Shown piece by piece: positions 5,290-56,709 of a stretch of 64,000 nt of DNA. Source of the DNA: a bacterium (lineage in GTDB: Bacteria > Bdellovibrionota_C > UBA2361 > RFPC01). Position numbers and translations under genes: made by a program. Within the stretch, counting starts at the first letter, position 1. Each line of letters opens with the position of its first letter. Where the stretch lies: contig RFPC01000003.1 in NCBI GenBank assembly GCA_009926305.1, positions 17,992-81,991 of the forward strand, written 5' to 3'. The notes beneath the pieces are model-generated. The model had not been told where the DNA came from and made no database searches. It was given only the letters and a program-made list of their open reading frames with translations.

Positions 5290-6210
5290 GTGAAACTTGA
5301 GCCGAATTGGAGTGAAAAGATGATCGAATCTCTACCCATTGTAAGCCTTGTCATTGATATTGCGCTCTCTTGCACTATCTTCTACCTAGCCGTACGAGTC
5401 GGAAGAGGACGAGGGCCGTCAGCAGCAAAGCTACAAGCGCTTGAGGCTCTAGAGGAAAGCCTTTCACGGCTTCTGAAAGAGGCGAGTGGAGCCAACGGAG
5501 AGCTGCAAAGAGCTTTGCAGCAAGAGCAAAAGAAGCTCGAAGAGCTCCTCTTTGATATTGAGACCGTCGAGCAGCGTTTGAATAAAGGATTTGATGATGC
5601 CCGATCTGCTTACCGCTCCTTAAAGAAGATTTTAGAACACTCTGCTGGAATCGAGAAAAGACTCCAGACGCTTCATCAAAGCTCAGAGAGGAGCGTAGAC
5701 TCACCAGCACCGAATACAACCCAAGACCGCAGTAGAAGTTCTCTGTCTGCTCAGGTGGAAAGCATCGAATATGATAGGGCTCATCAGCCTCGTCACCGAC
5801 AAGGAGTGACCCAGAAGCGAACATCAAAAGTGAATACGCAACCAATGGCGAGTTCGAGTCGCAGGCCACTTCGTGAAAGAATCACGAAAGAGTCTGTTGT
5901 GCCAGGTCAACGAACACACTTACCAAGTGCTCAGCAATCACTAGAGGATATCTATGCAACCTGTGAGGAGCTACTTCGAGCTGGTCAGTCGATGCAAGAG
6001 GTAGCAGCACGCGTTAACCTTTCCATTGATGAGGTGGAGAGACTCCAGAGTCTCATGATTCTGGAGGAAGGGGCACCTGAGATACCTTCGGAGAACTCCT
6101 CAGCACACGAAGCTTCTGCAATTAAGAGCCATCCCACGTTAGGTGCTCTCAGTCAAAGGAGAACACAAGAGACAAATCCGATCGCGAGATCGCGACAGGT
6201 GATTTCATAG
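5290..6210 (+). CDS. hypothetical membrane-anchored coiled-coil protein with C-terminal HTH-like motif, first gene of the flgF operon
   Basis: N-terminal TM (LPIVSLVIDIALSCTIFYLAV), a long coiled coil, and a C-terminal SMQEVAARVNLSIDEVERL. The antisense ORF 5375..5869 is judged a shadow ORF. Confidence 0.5.
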   Translation: MKLEPNWSEKMIESLPIVSLVIDIALSCTIFYLAVRVGRGRGPSAAKLQALEALEESLSRLLKEASGANGELQRALQQEQKKLEELLFDIETVEQRLNKGFDDARSAYRSLKKILEHSAGIEKRLQTLHQSSERSVDSPAPNTTQDRSRSSLSAQVESIEYDRAHQPRHRQGVTQKRTSKVNTQPMASSSRRPLRERITKESVVPGQRTHLPSAQQSLEDIYATCEELLRAGQSMQEVAARVNLSIDEVERLQSLMILEEGAPEIPSENSSAHEASAIKSHPTLGALSQRRTQETNPIARSRQVIS

Positions 6211-7809: not shown

Positions 7810-8783
7810 TGATGCGTTTATTGTTTGTCATATTTATTGGATTCTTCTTGTTTGCTTTTCAAGTAAGTGCAGAGGTGCATGAAAAACACACCTCAGACAT
7901 ACGTATTTTTGGAAAGCAAAACAGCACAGTTATAAATCAAGAGTTTACTCTGGGAGATTTAGCGGGAGTAGAGTCTAAATTTATTAGCGATGATGAGGCT
8001 ATCATCGCCCTGCAGGCAATAGTCTTAGGGAAAAGTCCAAGAGCTGGTAAAAAGAAAACGATTTCGGCGGCACAGGTCTTAGCAACGCTTCGCGAGGCTG
8101 GAGTTGAACTCGATAGTTTGCGATATGCGTTTCCACGAGTAATGACCGTTGAGCGAGCTTCTCGTCTCCTCAGTATTCAAGAAGTTGAAAGCCTTGTCAG
8201 GGAGGGACTTCCAGCCGATGGGGAGATTGAATTGGTTCGCGTGAAATACGACGGAAATATTCACGTTTTGCCCGGCCCTCTTGCCTTTAGTAGTGAAGTG
8301 ATACCATCAAATAGGAAATCTCAGTATCTTGCAAAAATATCGATAACACCAGAAAGCGGAGAGCTAATGACTCTTAATATTCCGCTTGAGGTTCGCGAAT
8401 ATGTCCAGGTTCCTATAGCAAAGCATGCTCTTCCTAAGGGAGCCATTATTTCATCTGGAGATGTGAAAATGGCACGGGCCCGTTTATCAGATATTCCGAC
8501 TGATTCAGCAATGGACTCCAGAGAGATTGTGGGACAAGCGATTAAATATCCGATATCGCATGGTGAAGTATTTAGCCGCAGAAAGCTGTCTCTCCCTGCC
8601 ATGGTCACTCGCGGAGCACGAGTGACCTTACGATATCGCTCTTCGCTGCTAGAAGCGACTGCCAGCGGTATCGCGCTTGAGGAAGGTGCTTTGGGTCAAC
8701 GGATACAGGTAAGAAACGATAGTTCGAAAAAAATGATTACTGGAGAGGTGATAAGTCCAGGTCTGATAGAGGTGACGCGATGA
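7809..8783 (+). CDS. flgA: flagellar P-ring assembly chaperone FlgA (SAF domain), signal peptide
   Basis: Signal peptide LFVIFIGFFLFAFQVSA. Sits between flgG and flgH and shares TAATG/ATGA overlaps with both. Confidence 0.7.
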   Translation: MMRLLFVIFIGFFLFAFQVSAEVHEKHTSDIRIFGKQNSTVINQEFTLGDLAGVESKFISDDEAIIALQAIVLGKSPRAGKKKTISAAQVLATLREAGVELDSLRYAFPRVMTVERASRLLSIQEVESLVREGLPADGEIELVRVKYDGNIHVLPGPLAFSSEVIPSNRKSQYLAKISITPESGELMTLNIPLEVREYVQVPIAKHALPKGAIISSGDVKMARARLSDIPTDSAMDSREIVGQAIKYPISHGEVFSRRKLSLPAMVTRGARVTLRYRSSLLEATASGIALEEGALGQRIQVRNDSSKKMITGEVISPGLIEVTR

Positions 8784-9772
8784 AATATAAATTATGTTGT
8801 CTCATAATGGCATCTTTAATGCTCTGGGGATGTATTGCTCCAGGAGAGTTGATACGTCCAGAGCTTCCATCTTTATCTTACAGTCGAAATATTCATTCAG
8901 GTAATCAAGATGGTAGTTCAAGCTCTACGACACAGACTGCGGTCGTTGCAGAGAGTGCTCAGAGAGTTAGCTCTCGTGCAGAGGCGGCAATTCAAGGAGC
9001 CAAAAGAAGTCTTCGTATAGCTGATGTAAATGATGCACGCGCATCTGTGCACTTTGTGAATACTCAAAATGGAGCGGTGCCGGGGGAAAGTGAGATGGTC
9101 TCCAATATGGATGCTTCGATGCAGGCTGCACCCTCCTATACCGTTACACATTCAAGAAATAGTAATGTTCGGCCATATCAGGGACCTCTTCATGTTGGAG
9201 AACCAGGTGCGAGCTCGTCACTTTGGAGGATGCATGGGCCTGGAAGCCAGCTGTTTCGTGATCACAGAGCATTTCAACCGATGGACCTTATTACGGTGGT
9301 TGTTTCCGAAACTGCACAAGGTTCTAAAGAAGCTGATACTGAAACAAAGCGAGAGTCTTCATTTCTGGCTGGAATAACCGAGTTATTTAACTTTACTGAT
9401 TCAGTCGTAGCAGCAAATCCAGGACTCGATACTGCAACTATGATTGATGCAGATTTTCAGTCTGAGTTTACGGGAGAAGGGGAAACTACACGTAAGGGAA
9501 GCTTACAAGCTCGAATTGCTGCTATGGTGGTTGAAGTTCTCCCGAATGGTCTGATGAGAATAGAGGGCGAAAAGATTATAGCAGTAAATAATGAAGAGCA
9601 GGTGCTCGTTATCTCTGGACTTGTTCGTCCAAGAGATGTGAATTCGAGCAATGAAGTCATGTCCACAAAAATCGCTCATCTGCGTGTTGACTATTACGGT
9701 CAAGGGCTTATTGGAGATGTACAGTATGTCGGGTGGTTTGGAAGGCTCATTAATAAAATCTGGCCATTCTAA
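8780..9772 (+). CDS. flgH: flagellar L-ring lipoprotein FlgH
   Basis: Lipobox LMLWGC and the FlgH motifs MDLITVVVSETAQGSK and LVISGLVRPRDV. Confidence 0.85.
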   Translation: MKYKLCCLIMASLMLWGCIAPGELIRPELPSLSYSRNIHSGNQDGSSSSTTQTAVVAESAQRVSSRAEAAIQGAKRSLRIADVNDARASVHFVNTQNGAVPGESEMVSNMDASMQAAPSYTVTHSRNSNVRPYQGPLHVGEPGASSSLWRMHGPGSQLFRDHRAFQPMDLITVVVSETAQGSKEADTETKRESSFLAGITELFNFTDSVVAANPGLDTATMIDADFQSEFTGEGETTRKGSLQARIAAMVVEVLPNGLMRIEGEKIIAVNNEEQVLVISGLVRPRDVNSSNEVMSTKIAHLRVDYYGQGLIGDVQYVGWFGRLINKIWPF

Positions 9773-11377: not shown

Positions 11378-11719
11378 ATGAAGATTGGCAAAAGTGGCTT
11401 AGCAGCAGACACACTGACTGATGTAACGCGTCGAGTAGAAAAAGAGGCGAATAAAGGCGAGTTATCAGACCGACTACAAGGTGGATATCCTAGCAAAGAC
11501 TCTCGCGTTGATGTTTCACTCAGTAGATTGATACAAGATGAGTTGGGAGCCGATCAGATTGAAGCAGAGCGTCAGGCACGTGTTGAAGCGTTAAAGAGCC
11601 AGGTGCAGTCAGGACAGTATAGACCATCTTCAGAGGCAGTAGCGCAGGCATTCGTTCGAGAGGTAGGCGCAGAGCTTCTTTATGCTCAATCACGATCTTC
11701 TGGCAACGAAGATGAGTAG
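11378..11719 (+). CDS. flgM: anti-sigma-28 factor FlgM
   Basis: The C-terminal half VDVSLSRLIQDELGADQIEAERQARVEALKSQVQSGQYRPSSEAVAQAF fits the FlgM family. 113 aa. Confidence 0.7.
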   Translation: MKIGKSGLAADTLTDVTRRVEKEANKGELSDRLQGGYPSKDSRVDVSLSRLIQDELGADQIEAERQARVEALKSQVQSGQYRPSSEAVAQAFVREVGAELLYAQSRSSGNEDE

Positions 11720-12373: not shown

Positions 12374-12389
12374 TGGCATCCATATTGCA
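12374..12389 (+). promoter_or_regulatory. sigma-54-type promoter (TGGCATC-N4-TTGCA) upstream of flgK
   Basis: gTGGCATCcataTTGCAc has exact GG-N10-GC spacing. It lies 44 nt upstream of the flgK ATG. Confidence 0.5.
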
Positions 12390-15112: not shown

Positions 15113-15562
15113 TTAGAGAGAGATGTTCCAAGTTGAGGGAGTTGTAACTTCAAGGCTATTTCCAGCAGGGTCTCGAAAATAGAGTGAATAACCGCCCGAA
15201 GGCCACGCCTGTTCCTTTTCAATCTTCACTCCTGCTTCCCCGAGATGTTTTCGCCAAAGCTCGAGCTCGTCCTCAGCTATTGCAAATGCAAGATGGGTAT
15301 TGCTCTTTGTGCCATGGCTGGGAAGGGTTCCCATTGTGGAACTCGTTACCGATGCATTAAAAAGCAATAACATGCCCTTGCCGCATCGAAGAAACAGATG
15401 TCTTTCTGGCTTATGTGAATGAATCTGGAGTCCCAGCACCTGAGTATAAAAGTCCTCAGCCAGTTGCAGATTATCAACATAAAGGCAGGTTTCTATGATG
15501 GCGAGTGGTTTCATAAGTGCAATGTAGTCTTCGGTGGCTTTTCTGACCAGCTGAATAGGCAA
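15113..15562 (-). CDS. VOC-family (glyoxalase/bleomycin-resistance/dioxygenase) protein
   Basis: ETCLYVDNLQLAEDFYTQVLGLQ plus a second beta-alpha-beta-beta-beta half. Convergent with flgL. Confidence 0.65.
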   Translation of the reverse strand: MPIQLVRKATEDYIALMKPLAIIETCLYVDNLQLAEDFYTQVLGLQIHSHKPERHLFLRCGKGMLLLFNASVTSSTMGTLPSHGTKSNTHLAFAIAEDELELWRKHLGEAGVKIEKEQAWPSGGYSLYFRDPAGNSLEVTTPSTWNISL

Positions 15563-15745: not shown

Positions 15746-16117
15746 ATGCTGATTTTAACGCGAAAACCAGGAGAAAGTGTCTATCTTGGAGACGACGTAA
15801 AGATTACGATCGTGGAAATAAAAGGGCACCAAATTCGTTTGGGAATTGATGCTCCAAGAGACCTTCGAATTTACCGCGAAGAAATCTATGAACAGATTCG
15901 TGAGGAGAATAGGCAAGCTGCTGAAACGGGAGCGACAAGCCAAGGGCTTGAGGAACTTTCATCAACATGGAAGTCCAAAACGGGAGGAGAGAGGAAGACG
16001 GGCAAGCTGTCTGCTTCAGTTCCAAAGTCAAAGGGAGATCGGGATGATCAAGGCTCATCCAAATCTTCGCTAGATAAGTCGGATATAGTGGTGAGGCGTA
16101 AAAAACGGTCTGAGTGA
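15746..16117 (+). CDS. csrA: carbon storage regulator CsrA with ~50-aa basic/Ser-rich C-terminal extension
   Basis: MLILTRKPGESVYLGDDVKITIVEIKGHQIRLGIDAPRDLRIYREEIYEQI is a canonical CsrA core. The total length is 123 aa, against the usual 61-75. Confidence 0.9.
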   Translation: MLILTRKPGESVYLGDDVKITIVEIKGHQIRLGIDAPRDLRIYREEIYEQIREENRQAAETGATSQGLEELSSTWKSKTGGERKTGKLSASVPKSKGDRDDQGSSKSSLDKSDIVVRRKKRSE

Positions 16118-16635
16118 TGAGTGAAGAGCAGTCTGACAAGCCAACTATCATGGTAAAGAGTTCGAGATTCGGCGACCTATCCGTTCCTGCGGACTCTGTT
16201 ATTGAGCTACCTTCCGGACTCATCGGTTTCTCCAAAACTCAGCGATTCGTTATGCTTGAGCACAAACCACCGTTTTCTTGGCTGCAGTCAGTGGATGAAC
16301 CTGAACTTGCGTTTGTGATTGTGGATGGCGGTGAATTTGGTGAAGAGTACCGCATTGACGCGCCTTATGGGGATAAAGATATCGATTTGCTTGAGAGCGA
16401 TGACTTCGCCGTCTTGGTCATTGTAACCGTGAGGCCTGATCCAAAAGACACAACAGCGAATTTGAAGGCTCCGGTATTTGTGAACTTGCGGAATAGAAAG
16501 GGAGTACAAATCATTTTTGATAATCCAGCGTTCTCAACGCGCTTTCCCTTATGGGTTCAGGAAAATGCTTCAGAGAACGATGGCTCGTCAGAAGAAGAAC
16601 CCCAAGAAACCAAATCCTCTTCAGACGATGAGTAA
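16114..16635 (+). CDS. fliW: flagellar assembly factor FliW (CsrA antagonist) with acidic C-terminal tail
   Basis: The N-terminal LSVPADSVIELPSGLIGF...RFVML matches the FliW fold. ATGA overlap with csrA. Confidence 0.85.
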   Translation: MMSEEQSDKPTIMVKSSRFGDLSVPADSVIELPSGLIGFSKTQRFVMLEHKPPFSWLQSVDEPELAFVIVDGGEFGEEYRIDAPYGDKDIDLLESDDFAVLVIVTVRPDPKDTTANLKAPVFVNLRNRKGVQIIFDNPAFSTRFPLWVQENASENDGSSEEEPQETKSSSDDE

Positions 16636-16759
16636 GAGGTCTGTAGACTCTGTCGATACATTCGTGACGGTATCTCTCCTTTAGCCCAGCTGATACTTTC
16701 TATCAGAATACAGAGATGGCAATTATATGAACTGGATGGTGAATGGGCTCACTAGCCTA

Positions 16760-17662
16760 TCACCCCAAAAACATGCCGCCATCCTCGAATTGCTCAAGGG
16801 TGTCTTCTCTGATTTTTCGAATGAAGTCTTCTGAGTTCCCTGAAAATTGCAGGAACGCCAGACATCGCTTGATATTTGATTGCTGCTCTCCATAGCCTTG
16901 GGGAGATCCAATACCTGCGTCATGAACGATTGAATCAGCCAAAGAGACAATAGCAATTTTCTCCTCGATTGAATTACTGGCAGTTGATGCGGTAAAGTTA
17001 TCAGTATAGTGGAGAATTACCTGGCAAATCTCAGGAGAAAAGTTCCATTTCTTTGCAACCAGAGCGCCTATAAGCGGGTGAGAAAACCCCAAAACAGATT
17101 CTTCCGCTTTTACGTAAGTTCCTCCCTGTTCTTTTATCGTAAGAATAACTTTTTGAAACCGCTGATATGTATCTTCCTGAGCAAGAAGTACGATCTGTCC
17201 TAGCGAGTGTAGTAATCCTAATAAGAATATTTCCTCTACGAATGGTTTCTGTAGTTTTTTTGCAATCAGAGTAGCAGCAAACGCAGTGGCAATAGAATTT
17301 TCCCAGACCTGTTTTTCAGCTGTACCAAATCTTTTGTTTATTTGTCGCAGCGTAGCGGCGACAATGATTCCCTTAAGCGCTTTAAAGCCAATAACCATTA
17401 CTGCTTGATTGAGCGTTGTAATGTCTCTTTGTCTTGAAAACATAGCTGAGTTGGCAATTTTGAGCACCCGGGCTGCGAGGGCAGCATCTTTCGAGAGAGC
17501 GCTTGTTAGCCTTTCTGCTGTTGATTCAGGATCTTCTATGATTTGCAACACCTGTGCTGCCACTTGTGGAATAGGCGGCAGATCTCCCACCCATGCAACA
17601 ATTTCTCGCCAATTACATTCTTCAGAGATACGACCATGAAATTCTCTTGGAGGTGCATCCAT
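16760..17662 (-). CDS. HDOD-domain signalling protein
   Basis: LSKDAALAARVLKIANSAMFSRQRDITTLNQAVMVIGFKALKGIIVAATL matches the HDOD signature. Confidence 0.7.
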   Translation of the reverse strand: MDAPPREFHGRISEECNWREIVAWVGDLPPIPQVAAQVLQIIEDPESTAERLTSALSKDAALAARVLKIANSAMFSRQRDITTLNQAVMVIGFKALKGIIVAATLRQINKRFGTAEKQVWENSIATAFAATLIAKKLQKPFVEEIFLLGLLHSLGQIVLLAQEDTYQRFQKVILTIKEQGGTYVKAEESVLGFSHPLIGALVAKKWNFSPEICQVILHYTDNFTASTASNSIEEKIAIVSLADSIVHDAGIGSPQGYGEQQSNIKRCLAFLQFSGNSEDFIRKIREDTLEQFEDGGMFLG

Positions 17663-18042
17663 ACCTTACTCCCGCGTGTTTCGTGTTTTTTATGTAATCT
17701 CAGTTATAGTCGAGAGTCGAACCAAAATCGATACTCAATAGAGGTTCATGCACAACTCTCGTTTTAGTCATATCCGCTCAGCAAAATTCGTAGGTCGCGA
17801 GCTATCGCGCACTGACAATTAGCCGAGAGGATCGTCTTATCACTGAGTATTGTAGTATTCCGCGCTAAGGGGATATCGGAAGATTCTCGCTATGAGTAAA
17901 GGATATTCTCAGGAGATTTGTCAGTTTGATTATTGGGTTTTAGGAAAGTTTGAACTTTTTCTTTAGCAATCCAGAGTAATAGACGAATGAATTAATATTG
18001 ATGGTGTGCAGCTATATATTTTTGGTTACGTGAGAGGAGTAA

Positions 18043-18357
18043 ATGCAGGAATTTCCAACAGAAATTAAGGGTGATAGGGGCTTCGTGAAGATAACGAGTG
18101 ATCTGGATTCTGAGCAATCTGGTGAAGCTCTTCGAAAGGCGTTTAATCAATTGTTTGAACAAGGACAAAGGACGGTAGTGCTTGATCTCAGCGACGTTCA
18201 GATAATCAATAGTTACGGCATCGGGAAGGTACTGATGTGTTACAAGCGTCTGAAAGCTGAGGATGGAGTTTTGATGGTCAAGCCGTTGGATGGCTTTGTT
18301 AAAGAGACATTTGAACTTCTGATGCTTGATAAGCTACTTCCGGTCGACGAGAGCTAA
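18043..18357 (+). CDS. STAS-domain anti-sigma-factor antagonist (RsbV/SpoIIAA-like)
   Basis: 104 aa with VVLDLSDVQIINSYGIGKVLM, typical of STAS antagonists. Confidence 0.75.
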   Translation: MQEFPTEIKGDRGFVKITSDLDSEQSGEALRKAFNQLFEQGQRTVVLDLSDVQIINSYGIGKVLMCYKRLKAEDGVLMVKPLDGFVKETFELLMLDKLLPVDES

Positions 18358-18377
18358 GCGAATATCAGGCATGAGTC

Positions 18378-19307
18378 ATGTCACATATACCTCAAAACGC
18401 TTCTGAAAGTAAGCGAGCCATTTTTTTTAACATGGAAGGGTGGAAAACAACCCCGTTATCGCAGTGTCTGTCAGATAATGGATGGCAGGTTTCCGGGCTA
18501 AAAGAGGAATACCAGCGGAGTGTTCAGGTTTCTCCCTCGACGTTACTTATCTTTCGGGAAGAAGATCTTATTATGCCCAAGGAATTCGTAGAAACATTGA
18601 TCAATAAAAATGGAGAAGAGCCAAGGATTCTTGTGTTACATCCCTCTAAAGACACATCAAACGGCTACTCATACACTCGAATTGATAAGCTTTTTCCTTC
18701 CGCTCATCATGTAACGTTGCCTATCCAGGAGGACGAGCTCAAAGAGATCTTGAGGGAAGTGGATGGAATGAGGATATCTCATAGTGAGAACTGGATACAT
18801 GTTCCTGATTTTGATGAAGAATATAGACTGACGACGTTAGAGCATCATGAAGCACCATGTTCTCCAAAATTATTTAACTATCTACGACGGCAGGGAATCG
18901 ATGAAAGTAATTTCTTGTTATTAAAGCTCGAGCTGGTATTCCAAGAGGCGATTGCAAATGCCTTTGAACATGGGAATTTAGAGCTCAGGTCGGAATGGAG
19001 GGAATTAATAGGGAGTGATGGGATAGACTATTTCAGCCGAAGAAAAATAGAGCGTTTATCTAGTCGTCGTTATTCGAAGAGGGAGATTTTTGCCTCTCTC
19101 TCACTAAAGAAAGGCAAATTGACCATCGCAATTGAGGACCAGGGGCCAGGATTTGATGTGGATGCAAAGATGATCCCAGATGCGGACGGAGTTGTTCGCT
19201 GTTACGGTCGAGGGCTTTCTCTTATGAATCTTGTCATGGATACCGTAACTTTTAGTAAGGGTGGTCGAAGAGTGGACTTAACGAAGGATTTAAGCAGCGG
19301 AGAATAA
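18378..19307 (+). CDS. anti-sigma regulatory Ser kinase (GHKL HATPase_c, RsbW/SpoIIAB-like) fused to an N-terminal pseudo-receiver-like domain
   Basis: C-terminal FQEAIANAFEHGNLEL ... IAIEDQGPGFD ... GRGLSLM are the GHKL N, G1 and G2 boxes. The N-terminal ~140 aa have a receiver-like alpha/beta pattern (RILVLHPSKD) without an obvious phospho-Asp. Confidence 0.6.
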   Translation: MSHIPQNASESKRAIFFNMEGWKTTPLSQCLSDNGWQVSGLKEEYQRSVQVSPSTLLIFREEDLIMPKEFVETLINKNGEEPRILVLHPSKDTSNGYSYTRIDKLFPSAHHVTLPIQEDELKEILREVDGMRISHSENWIHVPDFDEEYRLTTLEHHEAPCSPKLFNYLRRQGIDESNFLLLKLELVFQEAIANAFEHGNLELRSEWRELIGSDGIDYFSRRKIERLSSRRYSKREIFASLSLKKGKLTIAIEDQGPGFDVDAKMIPDADGVVRCYGRGLSLMNLVMDTVTFSKGGRRVDLTKDLSSGE

Positions 19308-19311
19308 AGAG

Positions 19312-19647
19312 ATGGGGTTAAAGTTTAGGTTAAAGGGACTAGCAGAAACTTTTGTTGACTCGGTTACGTGTCCAGCCTGTGGACGACATGGAACTGATGA
19401 TGATGACTTTATTACTGAGGAAACTCGGGTCACCTTCAGTGGGATTGTCGTCGTGGCTAGCTGTCCGAGTTGTGGAGAGGTTTTTGTCCCCACGTCTCAG
19501 CGTCTTGGGATAGTGAATTCTGTTGCACTTCGCTCTGCTGTCATACAAGACAGCCATGAGACTGGAGAACCTGTTCTATCAGATCTGCAGTCTGTAAAGG
19601 AGGTTATCGAACGAGAGAACGCCGATCGAAAAGGCGATCTGCATTAG
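19312..19647 (+). CDS. zinc-ribbon protein (2x CPxCG), third gene of the partner-switching operon
   Basis: CPACGRHG and CPSCGEVF separated by ~30 aa. It starts 5 nt after the kinase gene. Confidence 0.45.
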   Translation: MGLKFRLKGLAETFVDSVTCPACGRHGTDDDDFITEETRVTFSGIVVVASCPSCGEVFVPTSQRLGIVNSVALRSAVIQDSHETGEPVLSDLQSVKEVIERENADRKGDLH

Positions 19648-19910
19648 CGCTAAAGAGTTGCAGCCATTTCCTCTGCGAAGCTGTAAAAATTGAAAGATAA
19701 TGGTAGCCCTTCGCGTATTAATCAATTCACCACATGTCTGACCGTGACATCAAAAAACCGCACATCACAGAAGCTGGATAGAGCTAACCAGAGGGGTACT
19801 TCTATTACTGTATGATATGTTTCAGGCCGTACATTTTCGTATTGCGATGAAATGCGCTCCCACCCACCTTATTTGTGAGAAGCGATTATGTGCCTTAACA
19901 GAGAAAACGC

Positions 19911-20243
19911 TTAATCCTCCGCGTCGAGCTGTTCATCGATAGGCTGTCCATTTATGGCCTTTCGTAAGAGCTGGCTAGGCTTAAACTTCACTACTCTTCG
20001 AGCTCTTAAGATAATTGATTCGCCTGTTTGAGGATTTCTCCCACGTCTTGGTGGTTTGTATTTCACTTCGTAAGAGCCAAAGCCCGAAAGCATGACTTTG
20101 CTCTCTTTTTCCAGAGCGGCCTTGATTAACTCAATGTAATCTTCAACGATTTGTGTCGCCTTCTGCTTATCAACTGGCATTGTGGCGTAAATAGCATCCG
20201 CAAGATCTGCTTTCGTAAGGCAATATTTATTGTTTCCCATCAC
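19911..20243 (-). CDS. HU/IHF-family DNA-binding protein
   Basis: Beta-arm motif RRGRNPQTGESI and an overall HU/IHF-like fold, with a ~20-aa N-terminal extension (MMGNNKYC...). Confidence 0.8.
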   Translation of the reverse strand: MMGNNKYCLTKADLADAIYATMPVDKQKATQIVEDYIELIKAALEKESKVMLSGFGSYEVKYKPPRRGRNPQTGESIILRARRVVKFKPSQLLRKAINGQPIDEQLDAED

Positions 20244-20696: not shown

Positions 20697-21581
20697 GTGT
20701 TTATGAGACATCACTTCGGTGCCCCTTTAAACGAAAAATATCTGTATCTCTTGAGAGTATTAGCTGTGCTCGCAACCGCTTTTCTATTCTCATTGCTTGG
20801 GCTCATAGCCTATCTTTACGTTTCTAGTGGTTCACTAGAGAGTTCGGTAGAACAAACACTTCGAGCAGAGGTAGTTGAGTCGTTTCCTGCTGCTAAAATG
20901 GTCACTGTCTTGGTGCCAATTCAAGAGATTGAAGCGGGAGCCAAGCTTCATCCGTTTATGTTCCGTCAGGAGTCGAGGCCAGAGGTGGGAGTTCCAGATG
21001 GAGCCGTGGATGATTTTAATTTGCTTGAGTCTCGATATGCTCGGGGAATTCTTTTTCCCGGTATGCCCATTGTGCTTTCTCATACTGCAATCGATAAGTC
21101 ACCTAACGAGGTCGTTGAGAGAATTCCTCCTGGTTTTCGAGCAATAACAATTCCACATGATTCAACGCGCGGAAGTCTCTTCATCGGACCAGGTGTCCAA
21201 GTTGATATTAACTGGATCACTCGCCGTAATGATGAGCTCGTTGCAATCTCACTCGTTCAAAATGTAAAAGTTCTTGCGGCCGATGCTCGTACTGAAATAG
21301 CAGAAGAGTCTACGGATTCGGCTCCGTCGACTGTTACTCTCCTTTTACAGACAGAGGATGCGAATAAAGTACAACTTGCTCGTAGCAGTGGTACGATATA
21401 TCTGTCTCTACGTGGAGATGAGGACCCAGAGGAAGTCCCTCAAGCGCCGACGAAGCTGCCAGGGAGCAAAAATACGCCAGAAAAATCACATGATACCGTC
21501 ATTATGGATGGTGTACGTTACTTCTACGTGAACGGAAAACTGGTGAGAGCAGATCAGTTTCAAGATGATATGAATTTCTAG
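20697..21581 (+). CDS. CpaB/RcpC-like (SAF-domain) protein, orphan
   Basis: N-terminal TM, then MVTVLVPIQEIEAGAKLHPFMF (SAF-like) and a VQNVKVLAADART beta-clip region. No other tad/cpa genes are nearby. Confidence 0.45.
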   Translation: MFMRHHFGAPLNEKYLYLLRVLAVLATAFLFSLLGLIAYLYVSSGSLESSVEQTLRAEVVESFPAAKMVTVLVPIQEIEAGAKLHPFMFRQESRPEVGVPDGAVDDFNLLESRYARGILFPGMPIVLSHTAIDKSPNEVVERIPPGFRAITIPHDSTRGSLFIGPGVQVDINWITRRNDELVAISLVQNVKVLAADARTEIAEESTDSAPSTVTLLLQTEDANKVQLARSSGTIYLSLRGDEDPEEVPQAPTKLPGSKNTPEKSHDTVIMDGVRYFYVNGKLVRADQFQDDMNF

Positions 21582-21582
21582 C

Positions 21583-22935
21583 TCATCTTGCTCTACGCCT
21601 CAGAGCCGTTATTACAAATGGATTGTCAATAAATCCCCATAGATATCTATTGCTATCTCGCTGTTTAGTTGGTGTAGGCTGGTCTGAGCGGTTAGGGTGA
21701 CGCTCGAAAAGCTGGGCTAGCCTTTCGTTATCTTCAGCTTCTTTTTTAAACACATGATCCAAGAAGTCCGGCTCTTGTATATTCGGTGCGATCTTCTCGA
21801 GAAATCCCTTCCAGTCATCAAATTCTGAAAACTCAACATAAAGATGACCTGCCTCCTCTACAATTCTTTTCTTCTCGCGCAGTCGCTCAAAATACTTTGC
21901 ATCATGTATAAATTCATCCATAGCAGATGTGATTTCTATGCAAAGCAAGCGGTGCGACTCGGTAGGTTTCAGAATTGATTCTTCGGAAGAACGTGTTTCA
22001 AGGATCTCTAATAAAAAATCGGAACGGAATCGTCTCTTTGTTTCGGTAAATTCTGAATAGGAGACTTGTCGACGATATGATATTTCAAGCCGATCCATTG
22101 TTTCTGCGAAGATATTTTCAAAAGCAGAACTACTTACATTGCTGTTGATGCCGCGAAAGTCCTTAAATCCCATCTCGAGTCTCGCAACCATTTTTTCAGC
22201 AATACGCGGTCGAATTCTCCAATCTGATAGGTATTGAAGGGCAGCATCCGTGCCAGCTTCAACATAGGTTCGATAGCATTCTCGCCTCAGACTCGTCATA
22301 TCGATCTTCACTGGATCAAGAGCTTTCACCGCCCAATCAACCCTTCTATAGAGTTCCCGAGCAAGTGAATAGGTATGTGGGGAGGAATCCTTCATAATTT
22401 TCGGGTGTAGCTTCTCTTTTTCCGTGAGAAGGGCGAGTCCTACCAAGAGTTCAGACCGTTTTTCACCGAGAATCGAGCCAATTGGATCCTCATCAGGGAG
22501 ACTTTTTTCTATGACGGCGAGTCCAAACCGTTGAACCAGTGGTGGAAACTCATGAGGTAGGATGCAAGTTGCATTGAAATAATCTTCTCGTCCCAGTTCA
22601 AGAGACTCCATGGCATTTGCAAGAGTGATCGTTGCTACAAGACCTTGTCGCCATCGCTCAATGACGCCCTTACTTTGTAAGAGCTCGAATCTGATTCTAT
22701 CTTCAATATTCTCGAAGTCGGATACGCTCCATTCATCCGGATTAAATTGACGTTTTCGAATCTCAGCTTCTGAGCGTTGGATGTGCTCAACAAGCATGGT
22801 TTCACACAGTGTTTTTAGTCCATCAGAGTGCTGTTTTTTAACTCCTATGGCCATTTCCTCTGAGCTGAGAGGCAAGTCTTTAGGGCAACGAAATGGCTCA
22901 TGAAGATCGAACTTCCAAGATAGCCAGTGAAGCAT
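21583..22935 (-). CDS. hypothetical protein (450 aa), downstream partner of the SWIM-SNF2 helicase
   Basis: Long ORF co-oriented with the helicase and 122 nt downstream of it. No recognisable motif. Confidence 0.5.
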   Translation of the reverse strand: MLHWLSWKFDLHEPFRCPKDLPLSSEEMAIGVKKQHSDGLKTLCETMLVEHIQRSEAEIRKRQFNPDEWSVSDFENIEDRIRFELLQSKGVIERWRQGLVATITLANAMESLELGREDYFNATCILPHEFPPLVQRFGLAVIEKSLPDEDPIGSILGEKRSELLVGLALLTEKEKLHPKIMKDSSPHTYSLARELYRRVDWAVKALDPVKIDMTSLRRECYRTYVEAGTDAALQYLSDWRIRPRIAEKMVARLEMGFKDFRGINSNVSSSAFENIFAETMDRLEISYRRQVSYSEFTETKRRFRSDFLLEILETRSSEESILKPTESHRLLCIEITSAMDEFIHDAKYFERLREKKRIVEEAGHLYVEFSEFDDWKGFLEKIAPNIQEPDFLDHVFKKEAEDNERLAQLFERHPNRSDQPTPTKQRDSNRYLWGFIDNPFVITALRRRAR

Positions 22936-23057: not shown

Positions 23058-26000
23058 TCAGTTCTCTTCCATTGCTGGGAGTTTGAAGAGTTCTTCAAGC
23101 TCTGACTTTGTGAGGTTCAGAGGTGAGGCTGAAGCTTCTTCCTGAATTAGAGATTCAGTGATTCTTTTCTTCTTTGCTTTGAGTTGCATGATTTTCTGTT
23201 CTATCGAGTCTTCAGTAACCAGTCTATAAACTGTCACAGATTTCTTCTGTCCAATTCTATGGGCTCGATCTACTGCCTGTGATTCTACGGCTGGATTCCA
23301 CCATGGATCATAAATGATGACCGTATCCGCTGCAGTGAGGTTTAGACCAGTTCCTCCTGCTTTAAGACTGATCAGGAAAGCACGAACTGACTCGTCTTCA
23401 TTGAAGCGATCAACGAGAGTCTGCCTGTTTTTCGTGCGACCATCGAGATACAAAAACGGGGTCTCAAGTTCTTCTAAGAACTCTCGCATCAAACGTAACA
23501 TCTCTCTGAACTGACTGAAGATCAGAATTTTTCTCCCTGAATTGATGGCCTCAGTGACAACCTCCTTAAACAGCTCGAACTTTCCAGAATCAAGACCTTC
23601 AATCGATTGCAAGTCAGGAATGCTGTGGGGATGGTTACATACCTGTCGAAGCCTCAACAAGGCTGCTAAGATTGAAACGCCTGCCCCCTTTATGCCGCGT
23701 TCTTCGACTGCTTCTAAAACCTGAGGACGGACCTCTTCAACGATCTGTCGATAAATCTCTATTTGCTGAGGCGTCATAGTAACATGAAGCTCTGTTTCTG
23801 TTTTGGGTGGAAGCTCTTTTTCGACTTGATGTTTTAATCGTCTCAGAATGAAGGGAGCAGTTTTCTTACTGAGCAACTCAGCAGAGCGCTCTCCACCCGG
23901 AGTGCCTTCTAGAATTGGCTTCTCCAATTGATTGCGGAAGAATTCAGCCGAGCCGAGATAGCCTGGCATAAGAAAATCAAAGATGCTCCATAGTTCAAGA
24001 GGACGATTCTCAGTAGGTGTTCCTGTTAGCGCAAGGCGGTGATGAGCCTTGAGTGATTTTGCAGCTCGAGTCGTGGCAGCGGTTGGATTTTTGATATTCT
24101 GGGCTTCATCGAGGACGATATATGAAAACTGCATCTCTTGTAGAGCGAGTTTATCAATTCGTAGGAGAGCATAAGAGGTGACTACTATATCGTGCTCTGG
24201 AATAGAGTGAAAAAGCTCTCTCCTTTTGTGACCGTGCAGCAGAAGAGTGCTAAGTCCTGGCGTAAACCTCTCAGCTTCGTACATCCAGTTTACAATAACA
24301 GAGGTGGGCGCAACGATCAGCGCAGGGTGTTTTAATTCCCGTAAGGCGGAGCGACCCTCCTTCAGGTATTGCAAAAATGCCAATGTTTGTACGGTTTTTC
24401 CAAGACCCATTTCATCTGCAAGAATTCCTCCGAGTTCGTATCGATGGAGAAAGTTCATCCAGCTTGTCCCATCGTTCTGATAGGTTCTCAATTTTCCGCG
24501 AAAGTTTTTTGCAATTCTTATCGTTTCGATTTGAGAAAAGTTTTTGAGTCGTCGCGACAGTTGTTCGAAGCTTCTGTCGGCAGAGATCATTACTCTCGAA
24601 TCTTCTGAATGGATGAGTCCCAATGCCTGCGATGGCTGAAGTTTTGTTTTTATTGTATTCGAGAGACGGAAATTCGGCTCTAGAAATCCAAGTGTTGCTT
24701 GCAGGCGACTCAGTCCGCCGGCAGGCACTTGCGCATATGCTCCGCCATCGAGGCGAATCCATCTATCACCAGTATTGTTCCGTAGTTTAAAAAGAGTACT
24801 TAACGGGATATTTGCATTATTTTGAGATAGAGAGATTTTGCAGTGAAACCAGTCAATCGGGCCGCTTTCTTCCTCTGTTTTTGCTACCGAGACATTTAAC
24901 TTAAGGTCTGCAAATTTGATCTGTTTTTGAATATTTTCCAGACCTGATACTTTCCACGGAGCAGGAAAGAGTGATTTCCCCTGCTGTAGCAAATCAAGAG
25001 CAGCATCTCCAGACATTCGGTAACGCCTTCGATCTTTTTGATATGAGAATCCCATTGATTCGAGGGTCTTTCGGTACTTATCCTCTTCTTCTCGGTGGGG
25101 TAGGTATACCAGATCTGGTTCTACGGCTGGATACTGAAAATCAAGAGTCCCTTCAATAACGAGTTCATTTGCTGGGCTCAGGGTCTGGCCGTCCTCTTCA
25201 TTAGACCAGAGCTCTATAGAGGGCTTTGGTGCTTTGATTTTCGTTTTTGGCGTCAGCTCCGGGTTCGTAATATGAACAAACTGTCGACTTTCTTCTTTAA
25301 GAAGTGCTTCTAGAATCGGACCACTCTTCCCTTTTGCCACGGTTATACGTGGTCCATGAGGGAAGAGCGCGGCAAGTTTTGAGGCTGTTGATGATACTCG
25401 AAATAGGGTGTTATCGATGAGTGTCCAGTATGGTCCGGTCCCAACCAGTTCCCCTTCAGCTTCTTTTGAGCTTCCATCTGGCAATTTCCAAATGAAAGAG
25501 ATTTCAGCTGCCGTATCGGTCCAGGTAAGGGATAGGCATCCTTCTAATGCGACATCTTCGGTGGTTAATGGTTTTCGAGAAAGCCCATTGAGAATGGTCT
25601 TAAATTCTTGCAGAAGACCTAAAAGCGAATCGATATGATGGCTTGAATTGACGAACCACTGTTTCCCTTCTTCATCCCATGAGCCTGAGTCCTCAAGCAG
25701 TTGTATGAGAATATTGTCTATCGTTCGGGATGAGCGGGGAGAGAAGCTTTCGAAAAAGTGTGGTTCTTGTTGGTCTCCATCGAAATATACTTGTATTCCG
25801 AGGCGGTCTCCATTGGGTGCGATGCAGACTTCTACGCTTGGGTCGGTATAGGTGTGAACATGGGAGTTCTCTGGCAGGGGGGATGCTTCAGCAACCCGGT
25901 CAAGGACCTCTGCGATTTCAATTGGTCCGCTGGTGTTGACGCGAAAAGCAGACTCTGAGGCAGCGAAGCCGCTATGTGCTTCAAAGAATCCAAGGTCTGA

Positions 26001-26294
26001 TGCGCGCCACAGTGCGGCCACCGAATGAGGGCACCACTGTTCTTCCATTTCTTCACGGGTTGAACACCTGCAGTATGCTTCAACTCGACTCGATGAAACG
26101 ATTTGAAGCGTTACACTAAAGTCCTCTGAGTCTGTTGATCTGACAACTGCGGTAATCGTTGAGTTCACTTTGCTGCATTCAACTACTCGACCATCAATTG
26201 CATAGCCAATCCCCTTATCGACGATAGAGAAGGGGGCTAATCGCTTAAGATACTGGAGTAACTTTGGCTTATTTTCAGAGCTTACTACTGACAT
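23058..26294 (-). CDS. SNF2-family helicase/ATPase with N-terminal SWIM zinc finger
   Basis: SWIM-like CRCSTREEMEEQWCPHSVAALW; helicase motifs LADEMGLGKT (I), LDEAQNIKN (II), a helicase-C region and QKKSVTVYRLVTEDSIEQKI. Confidence 0.85.
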   Translation of the reverse strand: MSVVSSENKPKLLQYLKRLAPFSIVDKGIGYAIDGRVVECSKVNSTITAVVRSTDSEDFSVTLQIVSSSRVEAYCRCSTREEMEEQWCPHSVAALWRASDLGFFEAHSGFAASESAFRVNTSGPIEIAEVLDRVAEASPLPENSHVHTYTDPSVEVCIAPNGDRLGIQVYFDGDQQEPHFFESFSPRSSRTIDNILIQLLEDSGSWDEEGKQWFVNSSHHIDSLLGLLQEFKTILNGLSRKPLTTEDVALEGCLSLTWTDTAAEISFIWKLPDGSSKEAEGELVGTGPYWTLIDNTLFRVSSTASKLAALFPHGPRITVAKGKSGPILEALLKEESRQFVHITNPELTPKTKIKAPKPSIELWSNEEDGQTLSPANELVIEGTLDFQYPAVEPDLVYLPHREEEDKYRKTLESMGFSYQKDRRRYRMSGDAALDLLQQGKSLFPAPWKVSGLENIQKQIKFADLKLNVSVAKTEEESGPIDWFHCKISLSQNNANIPLSTLFKLRNNTGDRWIRLDGGAYAQVPAGGLSRLQATLGFLEPNFRLSNTIKTKLQPSQALGLIHSEDSRVMISADRSFEQLSRRLKNFSQIETIRIAKNFRGKLRTYQNDGTSWMNFLHRYELGGILADEMGLGKTVQTLAFLQYLKEGRSALRELKHPALIVAPTSVIVNWMYEAERFTPGLSTLLLHGHKRRELFHSIPEHDIVVTSYALLRIDKLALQEMQFSYIVLDEAQNIKNPTAATTRAAKSLKAHHRLALTGTPTENRPLELWSIFDFLMPGYLGSAEFFRNQLEKPILEGTPGGERSAELLSKKTAPFILRRLKHQVEKELPPKTETELHVTMTPQQIEIYRQIVEEVRPQVLEAVEERGIKGAGVSILAALLRLRQVCNHPHSIPDLQSIEGLDSGKFELFKEVVTEAINSGRKILIFSQFREMLRLMREFLEELETPFLYLDGRTKNRQTLVDRFNEDESVRAFLISLKAGGTGLNLTAADTVIIYDPWWNPAVESQAVDRAHRIGQKKSVTVYRLVTEDSIEQKIMQLKAKKKRITESLIQEEASASPLNLTKSELEELFKLPAMEEN

Positions 26295-30163: not shown

Positions 30164-30179
30164 TGGTCTGGCCCTTGCT
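30164..30179 (+). promoter_or_regulatory. sigma-54-type promoter candidate (TGGTCTG-N4-TTGCT) upstream of flgE
   Basis: aatTGGTCTGgcccTTGCTa has GG-N10-GC spacing. It lies ~150 nt upstream of the flgE ATG. Confidence 0.4.
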
Positions 30180-48454: not shown

Positions 48455-48552
48455 ACCTCCCAGACTCTGGGGAGGCGTTATTGCCTGAGAATCCAATGCT
48501 CTATTGGTAAACCCGTAGAACCTGATTCGGCTAGTACCGACGTAGGGAGGCA
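48455..48552 (+). promoter_or_regulatory. TPP (THI-box) riboswitch
   Basis: ggggaggcg...CTGAGA...ACCCGTAGAACCTGATTCGGCTAGTACCGACGTAGGGAgg matches the THI-element core (CUGAGA, ACCUGAUCUGGNUAAUACCAGCGUAGGGA). The 3' P1 strand contains GGGAGG, which is the Shine-Dalgarno for the ATG at 48555. Confidence 0.75.
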
Positions 48553-48554
48553 AG

Positions 48555-50897
48555 ATGTCGCAGTGTAATTCAAAGATCTGTAAGTCAAAAGCAGCGCAAG
48601 AATTTCTAATCCGAGAGACTACGCCCTGTATCGACGGTTCTTCTCACGGATTTCGAAGCAGCCAGTTCGGAACGCTCGATAGAACCCGATTGCTTGCCGT
48701 GGGATCTTTCAAGAAGACGCTATCGCTCAGAACGTATCATCATTTTGCGTTCCTTTCCGCCTATTTTGTCTGCCTTGCCGTCGTTTTATTCGCAGCTGAA
48801 GTCTACGCTGCAGACCAAGGCAGTAAATCTCAAAGCAGTGAATCTTCGGAGCAGAGGGATAATAGCCCTTCGGTTTCAGGTTTAGAATCACTCAATGCGA
48901 TAACTGAGCGAGCGATAATCGTTAAGGGGACCCCGCTGAGTGAATCACTCCAAACCTACTCTGGGAGTGTTAGTTTGATTCAAGCAGATCGGCTCCAAGA
49001 GACTGGCATTGATTTTCTTCAAAACCAGATTCTTGACCTTCCTAATGTAAATTTTGCAGGAGGGAGCTCGCGACCTCGGTTTTTTCAGATACGAGGAGTT
49101 GGTGACCTAGAGCAGTATGAAGGTTTTCCGAATTCCTCTGTTGCGGTAATTGTCGATGATATTGATTTGTCAGGGGTAGGAGCTGCTCTGACTCTTTTTG
49201 ATATTGAGCAGCTTGAGGTTCATAGAGGCCCACAGCCCACACGATTTGGCTCTAGTGCTATGGCTGGTGCGATCAGTGTAACAAGTCAAGAATCAACAGA
49301 CAAACTCAATGGCACAACAGTGCTCTCTAGTGGTAGTGATCAGCTCATCTCGTTTGGATCGGCTTTGAGTGGAGCAATTACGCCTGGGGTCTCAACCCGA
49401 ATAGCGGTGTTTGGTCATCAACAAAACGGGTTCCGCCATAATGAATTTTTGTCATCAGATAGTACGAATGAACGACAAGAGTTTACAGGACGAGCAAAAT
49501 TACAAATCTCCCCGTCTGATAATGCATCCTTTACGCTGCAGGTATTGAATGTTGATTTACAGAACGGATATGACGCCTTTTCGATTTTCAATGGATTCGA
49601 GACGCAATCCGATCGACCGGGGCGTGATGAAGAAACGCTACAACTTATGTCATTGAAGGGAGAGTTGAACCTGAATTCTACCCTTAATCTTGAATTGAAC
49701 ACGAGTTACTACCGTTCTGCCCAAGAGTATTCATTTGATGGAGATTGGGGAAGCAATACATTTTGGGCACCCTTTGATCCTTATGACTACTTTTCAGATA
49801 CAGATAGGAATCGAGATGCTGCTGCTCAGCTTATTCGTCTTCGAGGAGAACAGTTTTTGGGAGGAGAGGCACTTCGATACGTGCTAGGGCTCTACTGGCA
49901 CCATCTCTCTGAGAGGACAACTACTTCAGAATTTGCTGATAATCAGCAGTATGACTACCTCAGGTCCCGTTATGCTGCTGATACATATGCAACTTTTGCT
50001 GCTATCGAGTATCCGCTTTCCGACGTCCTTCTCCTCAATTCTGGGGTGCGGTTTGAGCGCCGTGACTCTGATTTTATTGATTCGAGGGGAGCCACTTTTA
50101 CGCCTGACGATGTGATGTGGGGAGGAGATATATCACTTCGGTATACAGCGAATGAGGACTTAGTCCCTTTCATTCGAGTTGCACGAGGATTTCGAGGCGG
50201 AGGATTTAATGCAAGTCCGAGCTTGCCGAGCAATTCGATTGAATTCAAACCAGAATCGCTTATAAATTTTGAAATGGGAGCTCGTTTCAGCTTGTTTGAC
50301 GATCGTTTTACGGGAGTAGTTTCTTCATTCGTCAACTATCGAGATGACCAGCAATTAAAGCTTGCCTTACAGGTTGATCCAAGCGATCCCCTGTCTTTTA
50401 GCTATGTGACTGATAACGCTGCTAAGGGCTATAGCTATGGGGCGGAGCTTGAATCAGCTTTTCGAATTACAGATAGCCTCTCTCTACAAACCCAAATCGC
50501 CTTGCTAGATACTCGCGCAGAAGTCAATGAGGGTGTATTAAATAGCCTTGATGGACGACAGCAGTCGCATGCACCCTCGTGGCAATATGCAGCTCAGGTA
50601 GAGAAGTTTTTACGAGACACTCTTTCGGTTCAGGTTGGAATTGCTGGGCGAGATTCCTTCTATTTTGATGATAGCCATGATGCTCAATCAAAGCCATATC
50701 ACCTGCTTCACGCTTCACTCTTTTATTTTTCAGATCGATGGCGACTTCAGTTCTGGGGCAGAAATCTCACAGATGAGCATTATGCGGTGCGTGGATTTTT
50801 CTTTGGAAATGAGCCACCAGATTTCCCCAATAAAAAATATGTCCAGTTAGGTGATCCGAGAAGTTTTGGATTCACTTGGACGTACTTCTTAAGCTAA
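48555..50897 (+). CDS. TonB-dependent outer-membrane receptor (thiamine/thiamine-precursor uptake inferred)
   Basis: Plug domain (IVKGTPLSESLQTYSGSVSLIQADRLQETG) and a ~22-strand barrel. A cleavable signal peptide lies about 50 aa inside the annotated N-terminus (alternative GTG at 48699). Confidence 0.8.
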   Translation: MSQCNSKICKSKAAQEFLIRETTPCIDGSSHGFRSSQFGTLDRTRLLAVGSFKKTLSLRTYHHFAFLSAYFVCLAVVLFAAEVYAADQGSKSQSSESSEQRDNSPSVSGLESLNAITERAIIVKGTPLSESLQTYSGSVSLIQADRLQETGIDFLQNQILDLPNVNFAGGSSRPRFFQIRGVGDLEQYEGFPNSSVAVIVDDIDLSGVGAALTLFDIEQLEVHRGPQPTRFGSSAMAGAISVTSQESTDKLNGTTVLSSGSDQLISFGSALSGAITPGVSTRIAVFGHQQNGFRHNEFLSSDSTNERQEFTGRAKLQISPSDNASFTLQVLNVDLQNGYDAFSIFNGFETQSDRPGRDEETLQLMSLKGELNLNSTLNLELNTSYYRSAQEYSFDGDWGSNTFWAPFDPYDYFSDTDRNRDAAAQLIRLRGEQFLGGEALRYVLGLYWHHLSERTTTSEFADNQQYDYLRSRYAADTYATFAAIEYPLSDVLLLNSGVRFERRDSDFIDSRGATFTPDDVMWGGDISLRYTANEDLVPFIRVARGFRGGGFNASPSLPSNSIEFKPESLINFEMGARFSLFDDRFTGVVSSFVNYRDDQQLKLALQVDPSDPLSFSYVTDNAAKGYSYGAELESAFRITDSLSLQTQIALLDTRAEVNEGVLNSLDGRQQSHAPSWQYAAQVEKFLRDTLSVQVGIAGRDSFYFDDSHDAQSKPYHLLHASLFYFSDRWRLQFWGRNLTDEHYAVRGFFFGNEPPDFPNKKYVQLGDPRSFGFTWTYFLS

Positions 50898-56693: not shown

Positions 56694-56709
56694 TGGCATC
56701 TGGCTTGCG
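56694..56709 (+). promoter_or_regulatory. sigma-54-type promoter (TGGCATC-N4-TTGCG) upstream of motA
   Basis: acTTGGCATCtggcTTGCGa has GG-N10-GC spacing. It lies 33 nt upstream of the GTG start, which is preceded by a GAGGAGGAG Shine-Dalgarno. Confidence 0.5.

Follow-up and report, generated by a model that had tools for sequence, protein, structure and literature searches.

The window analyzed here, a 64-kb stretch of DNA (64,000 nucleotides, positions 17,992 to 81,991 of contig RFPC01000003.1) from a bacterium of the Bdellovibrionota_C lineage, contains a compact plus-strand operon that encodes a putative partner-switching module in a block of flagellar genes. All coordinates below are positions within this window. 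The first gene of the operon (18043-18357) encodes a STAS anti-sigma-factor antagonist of 104 aa, the second (18378-19307) a kinase of 309 aa, and the third (19312-19647) a zinc-ribbon protein of 111 aa with the motifs C20-P-A-C23-G and C51-P-S-C54-G. The STAS and kinase genes are separated by 20 nt and the kinase and zinc-ribbon genes by only 4 nt; the GGAG of the latter falls within the final codons of the kinase gene, and the two genes are predicted to be translationally coupled.

Divergently from the operon, across an intergenic gap of 380 bp (17663-18042), lies a minus-strand gene for a single-domain HDOD protein of 300 aa (16760-17662). Directly upstream of these four genes is the plus-strand csrA-fliW pair (15746-16635; csrA at 15746-16117, fliW at 16114-16635), with Pfam E-values of 2e-25 for CsrA and 4e-32 for FliW. 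The four open reading frames (ORFs) listed in an earlier, sequence-only reading of the locus, the HDOD gene and the three genes of the operon, are all present with the same boundaries. No intrinsic terminator was seen 3' of the zinc-ribbon gene, no Rfam family matched in 17500-20000, and PADLOC reported no defense-system match.

Proteins encoded at the locus

The STAS protein matches Pfam STAS at 2.1e-10 and TIGR00377 at 2.5e-11. Within the motif IINSYGIGK, its Ser57 occupies the position at which SpoIIAA (1auz, match 2e-7) is phosphorylated, Ser58. This agrees with the initial annotation of the protein as an antagonist, and Ser57 is predicted to be phosphorylatable. The motif around Ser57 is invariant in 78 of 78 sequences. 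With a median identity of 76.5%, the STAS protein is the best conserved product of the neighborhood, the HDOD, zinc-ribbon, FliW, and CsrA proteins each having about 57%.

The C-terminal part of the kinase (18810-19307, residues ~145-309) is a GHKL domain of the RsbW/SpoIIAB type, matched by HATPase_c_2 at 5.2e-13 over residues 167-303. The ATP-binding motifs are complete: E190, N194, and H198 in the N box, D254xGxG258 in G1, and G277RG279 in G2. These residues are invariant in alignments A1 and A3 and in 62 orthologs from the clade, which bears out the assignment of this protein to the RsbW/SpoIIAB-type serine kinases in the sequence-only reading; the loss of these residues, which that reading had named as a refutation, is thus not seen. 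An AlphaFold2 model of the kinase (predicted local distance difference test, pLDDT, 83.5) combines a (beta-alpha)5 CheY-like N-terminal domain with a Bergerat domain. In a Foldseek search against PDB, the best structure was LvrC (9qih), aligned over the full length at E=3.6e-14; this entry is also the only PDB sequence match of the kinase (3.3e-5). The C-terminal half retrieved SpoIIAB (1th8, at 4e-7) and RsbW (6m37), and the N-terminal half many receiver domains.

This N-terminal half (18378-18773, residues 1 to ~132) is predicted to be a pseudo-receiver. Residues 1-150 have no Pfam match, and the receiver-like character noticed from the sequence is supported by the structural model and the fold searches. 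The domain had also been described as lacking the phospho-acceptor aspartate, and here the description has to be corrected: after a three-residue insertion, D63 aligns with the phospho-acceptor Asp (D57 of CheY). In a comparison of the receiver pocket, with the clade orthologs aligned with CheY, D63 is the only one of five residues that is kept in the window protein. The acidic pair is replaced by N and M, Thr/Ser by H, and Lys by L. The closest relative (locus L003) likewise retains the Asp only, with H and S at the acidic pair, H at the Thr/Ser position, and S where the window protein has L.

Other orthologs cover the whole range between a complete and a missing receiver. The full pocket (acidic pair, Asp, Thr/Ser, and Lys) is retained in five of them (L016, L021, L032, L038, and L074), and many others have a partial one (D-G, D, S, R). 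In ten species, the kinase is short (92-233 aa, in most cases 167-202 aa) and the N-terminal domain is missing altogether. The kinase is the fastest-evolving member of the cassette: its C-terminal domain has a median identity of 42%, and the N-terminal domain is essentially unalignable across the clade. Judging from these alignments, the receiver appears to be in graded decay, from canonical to decayed to absent, within a single orthologous group, which is a new observation. As its receiver has decayed, the window kinase has probably lost the phosphotransfer input of a histidine kinase or exchanged it for another.

The combination of a receiver with an RsbW-type kinase had not been recognized as a characterized one. 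It is neither rare nor without a characterized example, as a profile search yielded more than 4000 clusters of proteins of about 300 aa with REC and HATPase_c_2 domains (from Sorangium, planctomycetes, Riflebacteria, and others), and LvrC provides a solved structure. The combination is therefore widespread and has a structural prototype. On one distant metagenomic contig (L004), two REC+HATPase_c_2 genes (8001-8906 and 16263-16906 of that contig) flank genes for a TonB receptor, a DUF4154 protein, and a 1343-aa CHASE8-GAF-PAS sensor. On this evidence, regulators of the LvrC type may elsewhere be connected to large hybrid sensors instead of STAS proteins.

The zinc-ribbon protein belongs to a small family. 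Among 5.8 billion proteins it forms 43 clusters, nearly all of 111-114 aa and 46-100% identical, and an exhaustive search of 1.84 billion representatives with a hidden Markov model returned just 23 proteins, the distant ones retaining the motifs. A scan with one genome per species found about 100 species-level carriers, all of them metagenome-assembled genomes. Most are labeled Bdellovibrionota, Bdellovibrionales, or Oligoflexia, and none belongs to a named cultured genus. The two CPxCG motifs described from the sequence are present as CPACG and CPSCG, and their four cysteines (C20, C23, C51, and C54) are invariant in the 43 sequences. The N-terminus M.LKFRLKGLAETF and the motif FVP..QR.G are invariant or nearly so.

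The AlphaFold2 model of this protein (pLDDT 85, predicted template modeling score 0.75) is a small beta-sheet with two zinc knuckles on hairpins, followed by two helices. Known families and folds offer no clear relative: zinc-ribbon families of Pfam and NCBIfam gave sub-threshold matches only, with none reaching the cut-off, a fold search against PDB found nothing below E=0.25, and a profile search of PDB sequences returned generic zinc ribbons only (the Pol alpha C-terminal domain at 0.075, and RPA12). These proteins form a new, strongly constrained orphan family with a C4 zinc site. The family is acidic, with a median isoelectric point of 5.3, which makes proteins more likely ligands than nucleic acids.

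The divergent HDOD protein is assigned to its family with 170 bits against a cut-off of 22.9 (E=5.5e-50). Among solved chains, 3m1t and 3hc1 resemble it most closely, and Cj0248 (1vqr) is also among the similar structures. HDOD proteins such as GsmR, Cj0248, and SadB have repeatedly been found to affect motility by unknown means (PMC11004494).

Conservation of the cassette and its promoters

With the window proteins as queries, we tallied 80 species-level loci, 67 of them with enough upstream sequence. The closest relative, which is 54% identical, repeats the whole gene order from flgA to the SNF2 helicase gene. The STAS gene adjoins the zinc-ribbon gene in 74 of 76 loci. The kinase gene stands between the two in 59 loci (49 with a long kinase and 10 with a short one), and 16 loci have the STAS and zinc-ribbon genes without a kinase, at a larger distance from each other (11-210 nt). 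Where the kinase is present, its stop codon overlaps or abuts the start of the zinc-ribbon gene in 50 of 60 loci; the median gap is 4 nt, and in 19 of the 60 the genes overlap. Five loci have the zinc-ribbon gene without STAS or kinase, beside csrA-fliW (L069 and L070) or the HDOD gene (L081 and L092), and in L011 and L012 a FlgM gene abuts a pair of HDOD and zinc-ribbon genes that likewise lacks STAS and kinase.

By this tally, the zinc-ribbon gene is the core of the cassette, with the STAS gene as its near-constant companion and the kinase gene as a fast-evolving accessory. Conservation of the zinc-ribbon ORF in synteny, on which the sequence-only reading had made its proposal depend, is thus well established, since this gene persists more widely than any other of the cassette. 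Its persistence fits a role as a target or an adaptor. From the gene order, we infer that it may be the regulated target.

The neighborhood of the cassette is conserved as well. An HDOD ortholog (median identity 57%) adjoins it in 39 of the 67 loci, csrA-fliW is found up to 6 kb upstream in 27, and at least one of the two adjoins it in 47. The linkage survives rearrangement; for example, the HDOD, csrA, and fliW genes are all on the minus strand in L020. The HDOD gene, which had been noted as a landmark beside csrA-fliW, is indeed there and is in addition a part of the conserved neighborhood. Among the distant receiver-GHKL relatives that were checked (from Riflebacteria and others), none is accompanied by a STAS or zinc-ribbon gene; the receiver-GHKL family as a whole thus does not share the cassette.

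The classical promoter of sigma-28 (FliA) has the form TAAA-N15-GCCGATAA. We searched the 300 nt upstream of the STAS gene for a loose motif of this type, T[ATC][ACT]A[GA]-N15-17-[CT]CGA[TC][ATC], and for a strict one, TNNAG-N16-17-CCGATA, with random windows from the same loci as a control. The loose motif is present in 68 of 75 loci, against 4.3 expected (maximum 10), and the strict one in 47 of 75, against 0.9 expected (maximum 5). Downstream of the motif, the leader measures about 65 nt (median). Where the zinc-ribbon gene stands alone, such a motif or a near-match is likewise present upstream in most loci, and in L011 and L070 this gene is preceded by the variants TAAAG-N16-ACGATT or TCGAAT, which resemble the candidate of the window described below. 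Together with the recurrence of the cassette beside csrA-fliW, these promoters strengthen the flagellar link that had been suggested from gene location. Across the clade, the cassette is most probably a late-class (sigma-28) flagellar operon.

The window is an exception. In the direction of the STAS gene it has only a degenerate sigma-28-like candidate, TTTAG-N16-ACGAAT, at 17962-17988 on the plus strand, which ends about 55 nt before the STAS gene begins, and the block TTTTTCTTTAGC...CGA around it is common to the closest relative. A near-perfect sigma-28-like motif, TTTAC-N16-CCGATA, lies at 17874-17900 on the minus strand, about 210 nt upstream of the HDOD start. A motif toward the HDOD gene occurs in only 12 of 47 loci, and L023 shares the reversed orientation. 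A sigma-70-like hexamer pair at 17992-18020 on the plus strand (TTAATA-17-TATATT, 9 of 12 consensus matches) is a weak candidate, because the count of such sites is not above shuffle expectation. A further candidate in the leader, a CsrA-binding GGA hairpin (GAGUA-AAGGA-UAUUC), was dropped, being kept neither in the closest relative nor in the 68 leaders inspected.

The loose sigma-28 pattern has no match upstream of any flagellar gene in the window. Motifs of the sigma-54 type (TGGNNN-N5-TTGC, seen as TGGCAT-N5-TTGC and TGGTCT-N5-TTGC) are located 30-60 nt upstream of flgK, flgE, and a motA-like gene, at 12374-12388, 30164-30178, and 56694-56708 on the plus strand. Judging by these motifs, the structural flagellar operons of the window appear to be RpoN-dependent.

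A candidate late-flagellar partner switch and its alternatives

The explanation that we favor, and to which we give somewhat less than an even chance, is a partner switch of the late flagellar (sigma-28) stage with the zinc-ribbon protein as its dedicated output. In this scenario, the three genes would form one operon of the late flagellar regulon. The RsbW/SpoIIAB-type kinase would phosphorylate the STAS protein on Ser57, and the phosphorylation state of the latter would decide its binding partner. The zinc-ribbon protein would be a non-sigma output, sequestered or released by the switch; we take it as such because its gene occupies the position of the sigma factor gene in the sigF and sigB operons and is coupled to the kinase gene. 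The output might then act on the expression or assembly of late flagellar components via FlgM and sigma-28, or via the checkpoint of FliW, CsrA, and flagellin encoded next door. The divergent HDOD protein would be a further member of the circuit.

Several observations weigh against this reading. The main weaknesses are the putative contact of the zinc-ribbon protein with the STAS protein or the kinase, the missing phosphatase, and the degenerate promoter of the window operon. The zinc-ribbon gene also occurs alone and can therefore function without the switch. Moreover, the 18 loci that have no kinase gene next to the STAS gene show the same invariance of Ser57, and conservation of this residue alone therefore proves neither phosphorylation by the cassette kinase nor that this kinase is the sole modifier. 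(A comparison intended to reveal retention of Ser57 only beside a kinase gave no discrimination, as the residue is invariant everywhere.) At the level of the locus, the promoter candidate of the window operon fails the pattern found in 68 of the 75 orthologous loci, and the better sigma-28 motif of the window is directed at the HDOD gene, not at the operon. In 20 of the 67 loci, neither csrA-fliW nor the HDOD gene is nearby. Finally, the window ORFs of at least 110 aa that were scanned include no gene for a sigma-70-family factor, in agreement with the initial remark that none is adjacent, and none for a PP2C/SpoIIE phosphatase; such genes were also absent from the flanks of the examined relatives. 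Without a phosphatase or a sigma factor gene nearby, the partner switch is incomplete locally.

Another scenario dispenses with the zinc-ribbon protein as the output. Here, as demonstrated for HsbA and FlgM in Pseudomonas (PMC6482189), the unphosphorylated STAS protein would itself be the output, binding FlgM and freeing sigma-28, and the zinc-ribbon protein would be a co-transcribed accessory with a separate role. A candidate partner is at hand: the gene for the anti-sigma-28 factor FlgM (11378-11719, plus strand, Pfam FlgM 9.4e-9) belongs to the same block, 6.3 kb upstream, and a FlgM gene abuts the HDOD and zinc-ribbon pair in the two loci named above. The STAS protein is the most conserved one, as expected for a hub, and its expression from a sigma-28 promoter would give positive feedback. 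However, unlike HsbR, the kinase is without a PP2C domain, the surroundings contain no Hpt gene, and flgM is adjacent in few loci. This scenario also leaves unexplained both the coupling of the zinc-ribbon gene to the kinase gene and its persistence after the loss of STAS and kinase. We consider it unlikely.

A classical anti-sigma mechanism, as proposed for LvrC, has a still smaller chance of being correct. The kinase would sequester a sigma factor encoded elsewhere, the unphosphorylated STAS protein would release it, and the zinc-ribbon protein would be unrelated. The similarity of fold and motifs to SpoIIAB, RsbW, and LvrC agrees with such a mechanism, as does the order of antagonist and kinase genes, which is that of spoIIAA-spoIIAB and rsbV-rsbW. 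However, a sigma factor gene is found neither among the scanned ORFs of the window nor consistently in the relatives, and rapid evolution of the kinase and its dispensability in 21 of 80 species would be odd for the central sigma-binding part. A similarly improbable alternative makes the zinc-ribbon protein an independent component of the late flagellar stage (a chaperone, an export, or a motor-associated protein), merely co-transcribed with an inserted STAS and kinase pair: its gene does stand alone behind sigma-28-like motifs beside csrA-fliW or the HDOD gene (L069, L070, L011, and L081), and the distance from STAS does grow where the kinase is missing, but coupling to STAS and kinase as tight and persistent as that described above is usually a sign of joint function.

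If the zinc-ribbon protein is the output of the switch, the consequences are broader. Partner switches are usually understood via the sigma factor they control, whereas here the slot of the sigma factor is held by an orphan zinc-ribbon protein, which would be a new class of targets for STAS/RsbW signaling. It would also provide the first handle on the role of HDOD proteins in motility, and the cassette would show a stepwise decay of a receiver, from canonical through pseudo-receiver to loss, in one orthologous group. An extended version of the favored reading, for which we see only a slim chance, is that the zinc-ribbon protein represents a new output class, a non-sigma, non-enzyme adaptor that is caught or set free depending on the phosphorylation of STAS and ties the switch to FliW-CsrA-flagellin or to FlgM and sigma-28. 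In that case, the two partner switches would be joined with the HDOD protein in a single decision circuit of the late flagellar stage, peculiar to this uncultured lineage of predatory bacteria. As all carriers found are uncultured and represented by metagenome-assembled genomes, tests of these models must be heterologous.

Other genes of the window and comparison with known systems

The region 5' of csrA-fliW contains flgF/G/A/H/I, a gene similar to flgJ for a rod-binding protein, flgM, flgN, flgK, flgL, and a minus-strand glyoxalase gene, and more flagellar genes are located at 30-33 kb and 57-63 kb of the window. The glyoxalase/bleomycin-resistance family gene (15113-15562, minus strand) lies between flgL and csrA and has the same place in the closest relative. 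The csrA product is 123 aa long and consists of a 53-aa CsrA domain and a tail of about 70 aa rich in Lys, Ser, and Glu; long CsrA tails are common in related loci (89-155 aa). The GTG start of fliW at 16114 overlaps the csrA stop codon by 4 nt. The flgF operon is headed by an ORF of 306 aa (5290-6210, plus strand) with a sub-threshold match to the signaling domain of methyl-accepting chemotaxis proteins (22 bits against a cut-off of 34.6) and coiled-coil-like matches; it may encode a soluble chemoreceptor fragment or a flagellar coiled-coil protein. Between a MotA/ExbB-family gene (56742-57530) and fliL, two overlapping plus-strand ORFs of 176 and 180 aa (57527-58057 and 58054-58596) have no Pfam match and may encode divergent MotB-like or other motor proteins. 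A sigma-54-like motif is found at 58200-58214, inside the second of them.

Downstream of the cassette, a lone CpaB/RcpC gene of Flp pilus assembly (20697-21581, plus strand) has no other tad/cpa genes around it and is kept in the closest relative. It sits between an IHF-like gene (19911-20243, minus strand) and an ORF of 450 aa (21583-22935, minus strand) without matches in Pfam, NCBIfam, or PADLOC. The latter is adjacent to the gene for a 1078-aa SNF2-family helicase (23058-26294, minus strand), and this pair is kept in L001 and L003. Farther away, a thiamine pyrophosphate (TPP) riboswitch (48458-48563, plus strand; Rfam RF00059, 59.2 bits, above the gathering score) is followed by genes for a TonB-dependent receptor (48555-50897), a transporter of the PnuC-type family for nicotinamide mononucleotide and thiamine (50876-51460), and thiamine pyrophosphokinase (51436-52149). 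Together they look like a thiamine salvage operon.

Among known systems, the closest in kinase architecture is LvrC of Leptospira interrogans (LIC11110; crystal structure, PDB 9qih). A paper of April 2026 presents LvrC as a putative anti-sigma factor in which a receiver is fused to an RsbW-like Bergerat domain (PMC13269768). LvrC and the window kinase have the same two domains in about 300 aa and share an insertion between the N box and G1. They differ in the receiver, which in LvrC is canonical (D53, with a Y-T switch) and phosphorylated by LvrB (PMC13269768), whereas the window kinase keeps the Asp only. The description of LvrC mentions no adjacent STAS or zinc-ribbon gene (PMC13269768).

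Another close system is HptB-HsbR-HsbA-FlgM of Pseudomonas aeruginosa, in which unphosphorylated HsbA, a STAS protein with the phosphorylation site Ser56, acts on FlgM and so controls sigma-28, HsbA switching between HsbR and FlgM in flagellar control (PMC6482189). HsbR-HsbA, as well as CrsR-CrsA of Shewanella, is likewise a partner switch from a flagellar region, with a receiver-containing RsbW-type kinase and a STAS protein. However, the receiver and kinase parts of HsbR are separated by a PP2C domain, and an Hpt protein serves HsbR as donor, whereas the 309-aa window kinase lacks PP2C, and scans of the window turned up no Hpt gene. The Pseudomonas operon has no zinc-ribbon gene. In Bacillus, SpoIIAA-SpoIIAB-SigF and RsbV-RsbW-SigB show the same order of antagonist, kinase, and third gene. 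There the third gene encodes a sigma factor, and in the window an acidic zinc-ribbon protein of 111 aa. The window kinase also has an additional pseudo-receiver compared with Bacillus, and no phosphatase of the SpoIIE/RsbU type is encoded nearby.

The checkpoint of FliW, CsrA, and flagellin (Hag) in Bacillus subtilis and Campylobacter jejuni is itself a partner switch of the late sigma-28 stage (PMC4894983). Its csrA-fliW genes are immediate and recurrent neighbors of the cassette, and both systems would act at the same stage. The checkpoint operates without any STAS, kinase, HDOD, or zinc-ribbon protein, and it is the gene neighborhood that suggests its link to the cassette. Thus, partner switches in flagellar clusters and fusions of receivers with RsbW-type kinases were already known. 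The new features are an orphan zinc-ribbon family as a persistent third gene, its probable sigma-28 control, its linkage to the HDOD and csrA-fliW genes, and the graded decay of the receiver.

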